Source of the DNA: Escherichia coli
GTDB lineage: Bacteria; Pseudomonadota; Gammaproteobacteria; Enterobacterales; Enterobacteriaceae
DNA length: 5,355 nt
Direction: 5' to 3' (one strand)
NCBI RefSeq assembly: GCF_003334255.1
Contig: NZ_QOWU01000105.1
A program made the translations under genes and the position numbers. The notes under the pieces are model-generated. The model was not told where the DNA came from and made no database searches. It saw only the letters and a program-made list of their open reading frames with translations. Shown in pieces: positions 2,366 to 5,355 of this stretch (the first letter of the stretch is position 1; each line of letters opens with the position of its first letter).

Positions 2366-2468
2366 ACAGGGGGCCAGCCTGTTGCCGATTTTTCATCCAA
2401 TGATGCTTTCACCAGGCGGCACTAACCCGGACGTAGACTGTATTACAAAAGCGGCAAAAAGCAGAGAC

Positions 2469-2494
2469 AAAAAACCCCCGCTTTGCAGCGAGGG
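2469..2494 (-). terminator. Rho-independent terminator downstream of tRNA-Ala
   Basis: Read on the minus strand: CCCTCGC tgcaaa GCGGGGG followed by TTTTTTGTCTCTGCTTTTT. This is a GC-rich 7-bp stem with one mismatch, then a U-tract, starting about 10 nt after the tRNA 3' CCA. It also insulates the pdeA promoter region from tRNA read-through. Confidence 0.5.
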
Positions 2495-2503
2495 TTGGAA
2501 ATT

Positions 2504-2579
<76 letters not shown>

Positions 2580-2611
2580 GTCACGTAAAGCTTGTCGAGT
2601 TGACGGGCGGC

Positions 2612-2640
2612 ATCATATGAATTCCGCCCGAATGTGTCAA
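2612..2640 (-). promoter_or_regulatory. Stable-RNA-type sigma70 promoter for tRNA-Ala (TTGACA - 17 nt - TATGAT, with GC-rich discriminator)
   Basis: Reverse complement of 2612..2640 reads TTGACA cattcgggcggaattca TATGAT, followed by GCCGCCC. That is a perfect consensus -35, 17-nt spacer, 5/6 -10 and the GC-rich discriminator typical of stringently controlled rRNA/tRNA promoters. The predicted start is about 25 nt upstream of the mature tRNA 5' end at 2579. Confidence 0.55.
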
Positions 2641-2750
2641 CGGCAAATTGCAACGTGTAGTTTCAATCGCTGAAAAATCAGGCAAATGAACAATTTTGGA
2701 AAACCGCTCGCATTCAGTAGTTATTCATGTCACGGTTTCCTGTAAAGTGG

Positions 2751-2759
2751 TGTTATAAA
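2751..2759 (+). promoter_or_regulatory. Candidate extended -10 promoter element for yfeC-yfeD (TGtTATAAA)
   Basis: Plus-strand 2751..2759 reads TG t TATAAA, an extended -10 (TGn + 5/6 match to TATAAT), about 55 nt upstream of the yfeC ATG. There is no good -35 at 16-18 nt spacing, which an extended -10 can tolerate. Sequence match only. Confidence 0.3.
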
Positions 2760-2814
2760 ATGAACTACTAATAGACCCACATACATTCAGGGAATTGTTA
2801 TGTTCAAGGAGAGG

Positions 2815-3159
2815 ATGACACCAGATGAACTTGCCAGACTGACCGGCTATAGCCGCCAGACCATTAATAAATGGGTACGCAAGGAAGGCTGGACAACGTC
2901 ACCAAAACCTGGCGTCCAGGGTGGCAAAGCCCGACTGGTTCACGTCAATGAACAGGTTCGTGAATATATTCGCAATGCTGAACGTCCAGAAGGTCAGGGA
3001 GAAGCGCCTGCCCTTTCTGGTGATGCGCCGCTTGAAGTATTGCTGGTGACACTGGCGAAAGAGATGACGCCAGTTGAACAAAAACAGTTTACATCCTTGC
3101 TTCTGCGGGAAGGGATTATCGGATTGTTACAACGCTTAGGGATTCGCGATAGCAAATAA
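2815..3159 (+). CDS. yfeC: YfeC, small putative DNA-binding protein (DUF1323-type, HTH-like N-terminus), function uncharacterised
   Basis: ORF 2800..3159 in the track. The protein MTPDELARLTGYSRQTINKWVRKEGW... has an HTH-like N-terminus (ELARLTGYSRQTINKWV) and clear paralogy to the downstream ORF. I place the start at ATG 2815, preceded by AAGGAG at 2806-2811, giving 114 aa as I recall for E. coli YfeC. An alternative in-frame ATG at 2800 (preceded by AGGGA at 2789-2793) would add MFKER. Stop TAA at 3157-3159. Confidence 0.8.
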   Translation: MTPDELARLTGYSRQTINKWVRKEGWTTSPKPGVQGGKARLVHVNEQVREYIRNAERPEGQGEAPALSGDAPLEVLLVTLAKEMTPVEQKQFTSLLLREGIIGLLQRLGIRDSK

Positions 3160-3160
3160 T

Positions 3161-3553
3161 ATGAAAAGATTACGCAATAAAATGACCACCGAAGAACTGG
3201 CTGAATGCCTCGGTGTGGCTAAACAAACTGTTAACCGTTGGATCAGAGAAAAAGGCTGGAAAACGGAAAAATTTCCCGGCGTGAAAGGCGGTCGTGCCAG
3301 ACTTATTCTGGTCGATACGCAAGTTTGCGAGTTTATTCAGAACACGCCAGCCTTCCATAACACACCAATGTTGATGGAAGCTGAAGAGAGAATTGCTGAA
3401 TACGCTCCTGGAGCACGCGCCCCGGCGTATCGACAAATCATCAACGCGATAGATAATATGACAGACATTGAGCAGGAAAAAGTCGCGCAATTTTTGTCAC
3501 GTGAAGGAATTCGCAATTTCCTCGCCCGTCTCGATATTGACGAATCAGCATAA
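3161..3553 (+). CDS. yfeD: YfeD, small putative DNA-binding protein, paralog of YfeC, function uncharacterised
   Basis: ORF 3161..3553 (130 aa) starts 1 nt after the yfeC stop (taa t ATG), suggesting an operon with translational coupling. The N-terminal region MTTEELAECLGVAKQTVNRWIREKGWKTEKFPGVKGGRARLILVDTQVCEFI is about half identical by eye to YfeC MTPDELARLTGYSRQTINKWVRKEGWTTSPKPGVQGGKARLVHVNEQVREYI. The C-terminal REGI..L.RL.I segment is also shared. Stop TAA at 3551-3553. Confidence 0.85.
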   Translation: MKRLRNKMTTEELAECLGVAKQTVNRWIREKGWKTEKFPGVKGGRARLILVDTQVCEFIQNTPAFHNTPMLMEAEERIAEYAPGARAPAYRQIINAIDNMTDIEQEKVAQFLSREGIRNFLARLDIDESA

Positions 3554-3558
3554 ATAAA

Positions 3559-3596
3559 AAACGGCAGGATATTATCTCCTGCCGTTTATCTTTTTA
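3559..3596. terminator. Bidirectional rho-independent terminator between convergent yfeD (+) and gltX (-)
   Basis: Perfect 9-bp stem ACGGCAGGA (3561-3569) / TCCTGCCGT (3577-3585) with a 7-nt loop. It is flanked by an A-tract (aaataaaaaa, 3552-3560) on the left and a T-rich tract (ttatcttttt, 3586-3595) on the right, so either strand yields hairpin plus U-tract. It sits 5 nt after the yfeD stop and about 10 nt after the gltX stop. Confidence 0.7.
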
Positions 3597-3604
3597 CACG
3601 CTAA

Positions 3605-5020
3605 TTACTGCTGATTTTCGCGTTCAGCAATAAAATCCAGCGCTTTGTTGATACGCTCGATACTGCGGGTCTTACCAATTGCGTGAACGGTAACATCCAG
3701 TGCTGGAGACTGCCCCGCACCGGTTACGGCGACACGCAGCGGCATACCAACTTTACCCATACCCACTTCCAGCTCATCCGCCGTCGCCTGAATAGCGTGA
3801 TGAACGTTTTCAGCGGTCCAGTCAGTAATCGCGGCCAGTTTGTCACGAACCACTTCCAGCGGCTGACGCGCTACCGGACGCAGATGTTTTTTCGCGGCGT
3901 CGGCATCGAACTCAGCAAAATCTTCGTAGAAATAACGGCAGCTCTGTGCCATCTCTTTCAGCGTCTTGCAGCGTTCGCCCAGCAGTTTCACCAGATCAGC
4001 CAGCTGCGGGCCGTTACGGGTATCGATATTTTCCTGCTCAATGTGCCACTGTAAGTGAGTAGCAACATACTCCGGCGGCAGCGCGTTAATGTAGTGATGG
4101 TTCAGCCACAGCAGCTTGTCGGTGTTGAACGCACTGGCAGATTTGCTGACGGCATTCAAAGTGAAGTATTTGATCATCTCTTCACGAGTGAAGATTTCCT
4201 GATCGCCGTGGGACCAGCCCAGACGCACCAGATAGTTCAGCAGTGCTTCTGGCAAATAACCGTCATCACGATACTGCATTACGCTGACTGCCCCGTGACG
4301 TTTGGACAGTTTTTTACCGTCATCGCCATTGATCATAGAAACGTGCGCGTAAACCGGCACCGGCGCTTTCAGGGCCTTAAGAATGTTGATCTGGCGTGGC
4401 GTGTTGTTGATATGGTCTTCGCCACGGATAACGTGGGTGATTTCCATATCCCAGTCATCGACAACCACACAGAAGTTATAGGTTGGGGAACCATCGGTAC
4501 GGCGGATAATAAGATCGTCCAGTTCCTGGTTGCTGAACTCGATCGGACCACGGATCTGATCGTCAAAAACAACAGAACCTTCCTGCGGGTTAGCAAAACG
4601 TACAACACACGGTTCATCATCAGCATGATGCTCATGGCTGTGGCGGCAGCGACCGTCATAACGCGGCTTCTCACCTTTCGCCATTTGCTCTTCGCGCAGC
4701 GCTTCCAGGCGCTCTTTAGAGCAATAGCATTTATAAGCAGTGCCCTCTTCCAGCATCTGATCGATCACCGCGTTGTAGCGATCAAAACGTTTGGTCTGGT
4801 AGTACGGACCTTCATCCCACTCCAGGCTCAGCCAGTTCATGCCATCCATAATGGCTTCGATAGCTTCCGGCGTGGAACGCTCAAGATCGGTGTCTTCAAT
4901 ACGCAGCACGAACTCACCGCCGTGGTTACGTGCAAAAAGCCAGGAGTAAAGAGCAGTACGCGCGCCGCCAACGTGCAGATAGCCTGTTGGGCTTGGCGCG
5001 AAGCGAGTTTTGATTTTCAT
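3605..5020 (-). CDS. gltX: Glutamyl-tRNA synthetase (GluRS), class I aminoacyl-tRNA synthetase
   Basis: Minus-strand ORF of 471 aa, [49 protein letters not shown]... It has the class I HIGH-type motif (HVGG), the KMSKS-type motif (KLSKR), and a Cys/His cluster (YKCYCS ... GRCRHSHEH) consistent with the known zinc-binding site of E. coli GluRS. Start ATG at 5018-5020, stop TAA at 3605-3607. The sequence matches E. coli GltX as I recall it. Confidence 0.97.
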
Positions 5021-5085
5021 GAAATGGCCTTACGTTTAGAAAGATGCCGACAACCGGCAAATCCTGGAAAAATTAAGTGGGCGAT

Positions 5086-5113
5086 ATTCTATCACTCCCG
5101 CCTGATTCCTCAA
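5086..5113 (-). promoter_or_regulatory. Candidate sigma70 promoter for gltX (TTGAGG - 16 nt - TAGAAT, read on the minus strand)
   Basis: Reverse complement of 5086..5113 reads TTGAGG aatcaggcgggagtga TAGAAT, about 65 nt upstream of the gltX ATG. gltX is known to have several promoters in the gltX-valU intergenic region; I cannot say which one, if any, this corresponds to. Sequence match only. Confidence 0.3.
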
Positions 5114-5233
5114 TGTAGTTCGGGTTTCTACCTTACGCATTATTGTTTTCGTTGACAAATTGCGCAACACGGTCTGTTTTGCGATCATCTTGCTTAAATT
5201 TACGACGAACGAACAATTTCTTTAGAAAATGCG

Positions 5234-5261
5234 TTGACTCATTTTGAACTCTCCCTATAAT
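5234..5261 (+). promoter_or_regulatory. Stable-RNA-type sigma70 promoter for the valU tRNA operon (TTGACT - 16 nt - TATAAT)
   Basis: Plus strand: TTGACT (5234-5239), 16-nt spacer cattttgaactctccc, TATAAT (5256-5261, perfect -10), then GCGACTCC. The predicted start is about 10 nt before the mature tRNA-Val 5' end at 5279. An AT-rich tract (aacaatttctttagaaaat, about 5212-5230) lies immediately upstream, in the position of an UP element or Fis site. Confidence 0.6.
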
Positions 5262-5278
5262 GCGACTCCACACAGCGG

Positions 5279-5354
5279 GGGTGATTAGCTCAGCTGGGAG
5301 AGCACCTCCCTTACAAGGAGGGGGTCGGCGGTTCGATCCCGTCATCACCCACCA
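5279..5354 (+). tRNA. valU: tRNA-Val (anticodon UAC), 76 nt with encoded CCA; first gene of the valU tRNA operon
   Basis: GGGTGATTAGCTCAGCTGGGAGAGCACCTCCCTTACAAGGAGGGGGTCGGCGGTTCGATCCCGTCATCACCCACCA. It has an acceptor stem GGGTGAT/ATCACCC, D-arm GCTC/GAGC, anticodon stem CCTCC/GGAGG with loop CTTACAA (anticodon TAC), T-arm GGTTCGATCC and a 3' CCA. It matches E. coli tRNA-Val(UAC) from memory. Confidence 0.95.
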
Positions 5355-5355
5355 C

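Follow-up and report, generated by a model that had tools for sequence, protein, structure and literature searches.

Conserved divergent promoters and upstream Fis-like sites in the gltX–valU control region of Escherichia coli

The window analysed in this work is a stretch of 5,355 nucleotides from the Escherichia coli contig NZ_QOWU01000105.1 (assembly GCF_003334255.1). The gene order in it is pdeA – tRNA-Ala – yfeC – yfeD – gltX – valU. The region under study, positions 5021-5278, lies between the last two genes, which flank it in divergent orientation according to the open reading frames, the tRNA search and the annotation:

3605..5020, minus strand: gltX, coding sequence of glutamate--tRNA ligase, 471 aa (open reading frame with ATG at 5020; annotated as gltX in K-12 and other E. 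coli)
5279..5354, plus strand: valU, tRNA-Val(UAC), the first gene of the valU operon (ARAGORN; Rfam tRNA, 65.9 bits)

The products of the valU operon are tRNA-Val and tRNA-Lys, and neither of them is cognate to GluRS.

The original prediction, made from the letters of the window, took this stretch for the gltX–valU region of E. coli with its known divergent promoters. The database comparison leads to the same locus. All 258 positions of the region coincide with the gltX–valU intergenic sequence of E. coli K-12 MG1655 (258/258; NC_000913.3 2520673-2520930). Window positions are converted to U00096.3 coordinates by adding 2515652 and to U00096.2 coordinates by adding 2513674. Every one of the 5426 complete E. 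coli genomes contains a 406-bp query spanning the region, with at least 99% identity in 5343 records, and the locus is annotated there as gltX / tRNA-Val. Thus the locus, the sequence and the flanking genes are those of K-12, and the control region itself does not differ from the K-12 one in any position. As far as their titles go, two papers are devoted to the gltX–valU region: Brun et al. 1990 (J Mol Biol 214:845) and Champagne & Lapointe 1998 (Mol Microbiol 27:1141). The title of the latter describes the promoters as non-overlapping. The region is already known and was experimentally dissected in 1990 and 1998. We conclude that positions 5021-5278 are very probably the E. coli gltX–valU divergent control region, with two back-to-back non-overlapping sigma-70 promoters. 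The -35 hexamers of the two promoters are 120 bp apart.

Conservation of the region was assessed within Enterobacteriaceae. A genome scan with the GluRS protein gave 80 loci from this family, and a divergent tRNA-Val gene was found upstream of gltX in 77 of them. The intergenic distance between gltX and tRNA-Val is 245-260 bp in 74 loci. We aligned 75 distinct intergenic sequences, including that of the window; all counts out of 75 below refer to this alignment. As a neutral benchmark we used the 4-fold degenerate sites (third codon positions) of gltX from these genomes, where identity to E. coli is 57%. The parts of the control region have the following identity to E. coli:

valU promoter from -35 to +1: 97%
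valU leader: 98%
UP element, 5211-5232: 86%
site at -71, 5192-5206: 86%
block 5166-5191: 56%
spacer block 5117-5150: 47%, no better than neutral
gltX core promoter: 83%
distal gltX leader: 59%
proximal gltX leader, 5021-5062: 87%

Judged from the aligned sequences, the conserved blocks show purifying selection. Spacing appears to be under selection as well. Since none of the 75 sequences has an indel between position 5151 and the valU -10 hexamer, though the sequence of 5166-5191 drifts freely, the alignment indicates a probable constraint on spacing or helical phase upstream of valU.

The promoter elements of valU are as follows:

5211..5232, plus strand: UP element GAACAATTTCTTTAGAAAATGC, at -59 to -38; 12 of 14 specified consensus positions match, 86% conserved
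5234..5261, plus strand: core promoter TTGACT-16-TATAAT (-35 at 5234-5239, -10 at 5256-5261); 11/12 match to consensus, invariant in 75/75
5262..5270, plus strand: GC-rich discriminator GCGACTCC with the start A (5270); invariant in 75/75

The near-consensus stable-RNA promoter that the original prediction had assigned to valU, with an AT-rich tract upstream of it, is found at these positions, and the AT-rich tract corresponds to the UP-element match. The hexamers TTGACT and TATAAT, the 16-bp spacer between them and GCGACTCCA are the same in all 75 sequences. In the case of valU the sequence is sufficient to support the promoter, because an 11/12 match with a 16-bp spacer is expected by chance only 0.01 times per window (dinucleotide shuffles). 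The UP element is also a rare match: a score of at least 12 is reached by just 2 of 10,666 window positions, while rrnB P1 scores 11 in the same register.

The published start of valU transcription precedes the mature tRNA by 9 nt (PMC4176162); this is A5270, the 9th nucleotide after TATAAT. The start quoted from EcoCyc is 7 nt upstream of the tRNA and corresponds to A5272, 11 nt after the -10 hexamer. It had been specified in advance that starts should fall 6-9 nt after the proposed -10 elements. This holds on both strands, with 9 nt for valU (at the upper edge of the range) and 8 nt for gltX. NAD capping of the valU precursor has been reported (bioRxiv 10.1101/2024.04.04.588121). Since such caps arise when transcription initiates at A, this is consistent with A at +1.

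The valU promoter resembles the ribosomal promoter rrnB P1 in several respects. Both have a 16-bp spacer and TATAAT as the -10 hexamer; in both the discriminator is rich in GC, and transcription begins at an A that follows the -10 hexamer by 9 nt. When the two promoters are aligned on the -10 hexamer, they share the run CTCCC-TATAAT-GCG-C-CCAC. A UP element occupies -59..-38 in both cases, with 12/14 matches in valU and 11/14 in rrnB P1. In rrnB P1 a Fis site is centred at -71 and others at -102 and -143; valU has a putative counterpart of the first one, a Fis-like site centred at -71. The differences are in the -35 hexamer (TTGACT in valU, TTGTCA in rrnB P1) and in the more distant upstream sites, which in valU are located at about -91 and -112 instead of the rrnB P1 positions. 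In addition, the upstream activating region of valU is shared, back-to-back, with the promoter of a protein-coding gene.

The upstream sites mentioned above are three 15-mers with no strand assigned:

5151..5165: Fis-like 15-mer GTTGACAAATTGCGC, centre at -112 relative to valU +1 and at -80 relative to gltX +1; TTGACA lies within it
5172..5186: weaker, tentative Fis-like 15-mer GTCTGTTTTGCGATC, centre at -91; contains the conserved GCGATC with a Dam GATC
5192..5206: Fis-like 15-mer GCTTAAATTTACGAC, centre exactly at -71 from the valU start; contains conserved columns

The invariant columns upstream of valU form G-N13-C 15-mers with A/T-rich centres, whose spacing of 20-21 bp is kept in 75/75 sequences. 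All sequences keep G5151, T5160 and C5165 of the distal site, and conservation of its A-tract 5157-5159 is at least 95%. In the middle site G5172 is kept in 72/75 sequences and C5186 in 70/75. The proximal site has six columns with 100% conservation (G5192, T5195, T5200, T5201, A5205 and C5206), and its distance to the valU -10 hexamer is invariant in 75/75. We scored Fis sites with a home-made heuristic based on a Fis consensus, so the sites are to be regarded as sequence matches. With this heuristic the sites at 5151 and 5192 rank first and second in the region, in the 99.8th and 99.7th percentiles of the window, and the site at 5172 is in the 99.0th percentile. The fit is uneven: TACGAC, which makes up the right half of the -71 site, is a poor match to the Fis consensus, and the match at -91 is weak.

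Two short conserved elements lie close to these sites. The GCGATC with its Dam GATC at 5181-5186 is conserved (about 58-70 of 75 per column) within an otherwise freely drifting stretch; it sits between the two strong Fis-like sites and may be the right half of the weak -91 site. The element ACGACGAAC (5202-5210), located between the UP element and the -71 site, hardly varies among the 75 sequences and has no obvious account in the Fis or UP consensus.

The influence of Fis on the gltX–valU region is, by its title, the subject of Champagne & Lapointe 1998, and gltX is among the members of the Fis regulon given in a network paper. The main protein on the conserved blocks 5151-5165, 5181-5186 and 5192-5210 could instead be another regulator (for example H-NS, Lrp or FabR), or the blocks could reflect intrinsically curved or AT-rich DNA. 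The Fis consensus accounts neither for the invariant ACGACGAAC nor for the right half of the -71 site, the conserved GCGATC at 5181-5186 is unexplained, and a FabR ChIP-chip peak over the gltX–valU intergenic region has been published for Salmonella. FabR peaks are, however, also present on several other tRNA promoters, which suggests an artefact of ChIP in highly transcribed regions; the Salmonella peak at gltX–valU is probably not specific. Moreover, the invariant columns are precisely the G-N13-C ends and the A/T-rich centre, the proximal site has its centre exactly at the rrnB P1 position of -71, and both the title of the dedicated paper and the curated Fis regulon point to Fis effects here. 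We consider a mainly non-Fis explanation quite unlikely. The hexamer TTGACA at 5152-5157 on the plus strand deserves a separate comment. The original prediction pointed it out as an isolated consensus -35 hexamer with no matching -10. The hexamer is indeed there and has no usable -10 at a distance of 16-18 bp (5175-5180 is TGTTTT), but its status as a promoter element does not stand, as it is found at chance level and lies inside a Fis-like site. A perfect consensus hexamer in non-coding DNA could be the functional -35 of a third, plus-strand promoter, either a second promoter of valU or that of an unannotated transcript. Against this, the promoter scan is empty there, the window contains three TTGACA hexamers with 3.08 expected, and the hexamer is poorly kept in orthologues: G5154 occurs in 21/75 sequences and C5156 in 16/75, and the commonest versions are TTTATA and TTTAGA. 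In addition, the 1990 work by Brun and co-authors reportedly found a single promoter for valU. A third promoter of this kind is very improbable, and on the chance count and the non-conservation of G5154 and C5156 we reject the idea that TTGACA serves as a -35. The most plausible reading is a coincidence, specific to Escherichia, within the distal Fis-like site.

On the opposite strand the region contains the promoter, the transcription starts and the leader of gltX:

5108..5113, minus strand: -35 hexamer TTGAGG, separated by a 16-bp spacer from the -10 hexamer; TTGAGG in 72/75, spacer in 72/75
5086..5094, minus strand: extended -10 element TGATAGAAT, TGn followed by TAGAAT (5091..5086); TGnTAGAAT in 75/75
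5103, minus strand: second, weaker 5' end, giving an 83-nt UTR (NC_000913.2 2518777, 19 reads)
5078, minus strand: major transcription start A (NC_000913.2 2518752, 33 reads)
5021..5078, minus strand: 5' UTR of 58 nt from the major start (58 is also the UTR length in the TSS table), with Shine-Dalgarno AAGG at 5031..5028
5045..5059, minus strand: leader hairpin UGCCGG-UUG-UCGGCA followed by UCUUUCU; terminator-like in the scan, conserved

The candidate gltX promoter TTGAGG-16-TAGAAT of the original prediction is located at 5113..5086. By its sequence it is near the chance level: this is a 9/12 match, and the window contains 6 matches with at most 3 mismatches while 4.3 are expected. The gltX promoter needs outside evidence because a 9/12 match is no better than chance, and such evidence is available. 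In MG1655 Kim et al. 2012 (PMC3415461, supplement file 2) mapped two gltX TSSs, the stronger 2518752(-) and the weaker 2518777(-). The promoter string listed in the same source for TSS 2518752 ends with ...TTGAGGAATCAGGCGGGAGTGATAGAATATCGCCCA. Mapped onto the window, the published stronger start is A5078, the 8th nucleotide after TAGAAT. Both hexamers and their spacer are conserved in 72-75 of 75 sequences. The gltX promoter is thus validated by its conservation and by the mapped starts, and the consensus score is not the basis of this validation.

Like other extended -10 sigma-70 promoters, the gltX promoter has TGn before its -10 hexamer TAGAAT, with the TG at -15/-14. The TG and the hexamer are present in 75/75 sequences and the n is free, being A, G, T or C. 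It differs from pure -35-independent extended -10 promoters in keeping a conserved, moderately good -35 hexamer (TTGAGG in 72/75).

The weaker 5' end at 5103 has no comparable promoter: the best hexamers upstream of it match the consensus in 6/12 positions (TACATT, with no -35). One more gltX 5' end, a single read at -33, i.e., at position 5053 inside the leader hairpin, was reported by Mendoza-Vargas et al. 2009 (PMC2760140), who also predicted an attenuator over window positions 5028-5075. The location of the 5053 end within the hairpin makes an RNase E processing site possible.

The ends at 5103 and 5053 might have arisen by processing of a longer gltX transcript, in which case gltX would effectively have one conserved promoter. 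As promoters the sequences upstream of both ends score only 6/12, the 5053 end is represented by a single read, and RNase E processing of gltX transcripts was reportedly described in 1990 by Brun et al. On the other hand, since the 5103 end is farther from the gene than the start at 5078, it needs its own or a still more distal promoter, and Kim et al. 2012 (PMC3415461) counted it, with its 19 reads, among the TSSs. Processing as the source of both ends is a possibility that we regard with some doubt. A separate alternative concerns the upstream Fis-like site. The complement of the hexamer discussed above, TTGTCA (5158..5153), or the nearby TTGCGC would be the -35 of an extra, E. coli-specific gltX promoter with TAAGGT or AATAAT as the -10 (approximately 5128-5144), and Fis bound at 5151-5165 would occlude it. 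The minus strand can be read as TTGTCA-17-TAAGGT and TTGCGC-17-AATAAT, and the Fis-like site overlaps both -35 candidates. Brun et al. are said to have described three gltX promoters in 1990, and this could be one of them, as the table of Kim 2012 (PMC3415461) contains only two gltX 5' ends. Against it, that table has no TSS between 5104 and 5150. Furthermore, the block 5117-5150, with its 47% identity across genera, is at or below the neutral level, and both candidates are below the 9/12 threshold of the scan. Such an additional promoter is, in our estimation, unlikely. In our main reading gltX is transcribed mainly from the extended -10 promoter TTGAGG-16-TGATAGAAT, starting at A5078 and giving a 58-nt leader.

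This leader carries the conserved hairpin, which may have a role. The hairpin at 5045-5059 closely precedes the gltX ribosome-binding site, and a U-rich run comes after it. Its stem is invariant or kept across the 75 sequences, with one varying pair (GC to GU or AU). Two structural interpretations find no support: an exceptionally stable leader, as the fold of 79 nt gives z = 0.03 in comparison with shuffles, and a covarying one, as that one pair alone varies among the 75 sequences. No Rfam cis-regulatory family was found in the gltX leader at the gathering score; the matches in the whole window are the two tRNAs. A post-transcriptional role of the hairpin was reportedly suggested in 1990, and we know of no demonstration of it to date. 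The invariant hairpin might be a real post-transcriptional control element that acts by attenuation, in translation, as the place where RNase E enters, or as a mimic of tRNA-Glu through which GluRS exerts feedback; this is a conjecture to which we give low credence.

The leader is also where the large length changes of the region are found. GC-rich insertions of 101-127 bp, at the equivalent of positions 5024-5074, occur in three genera (in Intestinirhabdus alba, Entomohabitans teleogrylli and Buttiauxella brennerae), where the intergenic region reaches 372-384 bp. They do not match the ERIC primer sequences, so we rejected their identification as ERIC elements. Four further sequences are approximately 11-13 bp shorter, with a 13-bp gltX spacer in three of them; otherwise the insertions are the sole large length changes.

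The features of the valU side suggest the following mode of control. The gene would be driven by a stable-RNA promoter of the rrn P1 type with near-consensus hexamers, a sub-optimal 16-bp spacer, a GC-rich discriminator and the start at A5270. The UP element would recruit the C-terminal domain of the RNA polymerase alpha subunit, and Fis may occupy the Fis-like sites, which lie in helical phase with centres at -71, about -91 and -112. By analogy with rrn P1-type promoters, valU transcription would be very high, growth-rate-dependent, sensitive to ppGpp/DksA and boosted by Fis.

In the 1998 work of Champagne and Lapointe, Fis reportedly activates valU and represses gltX, and the two promoters are said to function independently. 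The original prediction regarded the divergent arrangement as coupling the synthesis of the tRNA operon and the synthetase to growth rate. If these effects hold, this coupling would be a matter of regulatory co-location and not of simple co-activation, because Fis would activate valU but repress gltX.

The promoter calls made from sequence only were accurate on both strands; their weight as a discovery is limited. What is added here is a footprint of 75 sequences, in which the selected parts are the valU core promoter, the UP element, the -71 site, the TGnTAGAAT and TTGAGG of gltX and the hairpin of the proximal leader. The analysis also adds an upstream activating region that does not tolerate indels, and a reassignment of TTGACA to a Fis-like site as a lineage-specific coincidence.

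Several minor observations concern the rest of the window. A genomic-SELEX peak of PdhR and a 10/14 match to the PdhR box are located inside the gltX coding sequence, at window positions of about 3672-3774 (U00096.2 2517448 and 2517346). The source table assigns this peak to 'valU', yet it maps within the gltX coding sequence, outside the intergenic region, and it is probably incidental.

The strain differs from MG1655 in the number of tRNA-Ala genes and in the base at 5355, both outside the gltX–valU control region. The window (2380-2580) has one tRNA-Ala(GGC) gene, at 2504-2579 on the minus strand, in place of the tandem alaX and alaW of MG1655. The difference is exactly one absent repeat unit of 115 bp, and the flanks 2001-2480 and 2499-5354 show 100% identity. 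The pattern resembles a polymorphism in copy number that arose when tandem tRNA genes recombined. The base after the CCA end of valU (5355) is C, as in valX and valY of MG1655, while valU of MG1655 has A. In the 100%-identical genomes listed, the match covers two tRNA-Val genes; a K-12 derivative among them has two annotated tRNA-Val genes before tRNA-Lys, compared with three in MG1655. The C at 5355 together with the two tRNA-Val genes in identical genomes suggests that this strain has a valU/valX recombinant, two-copy variant of the operon.
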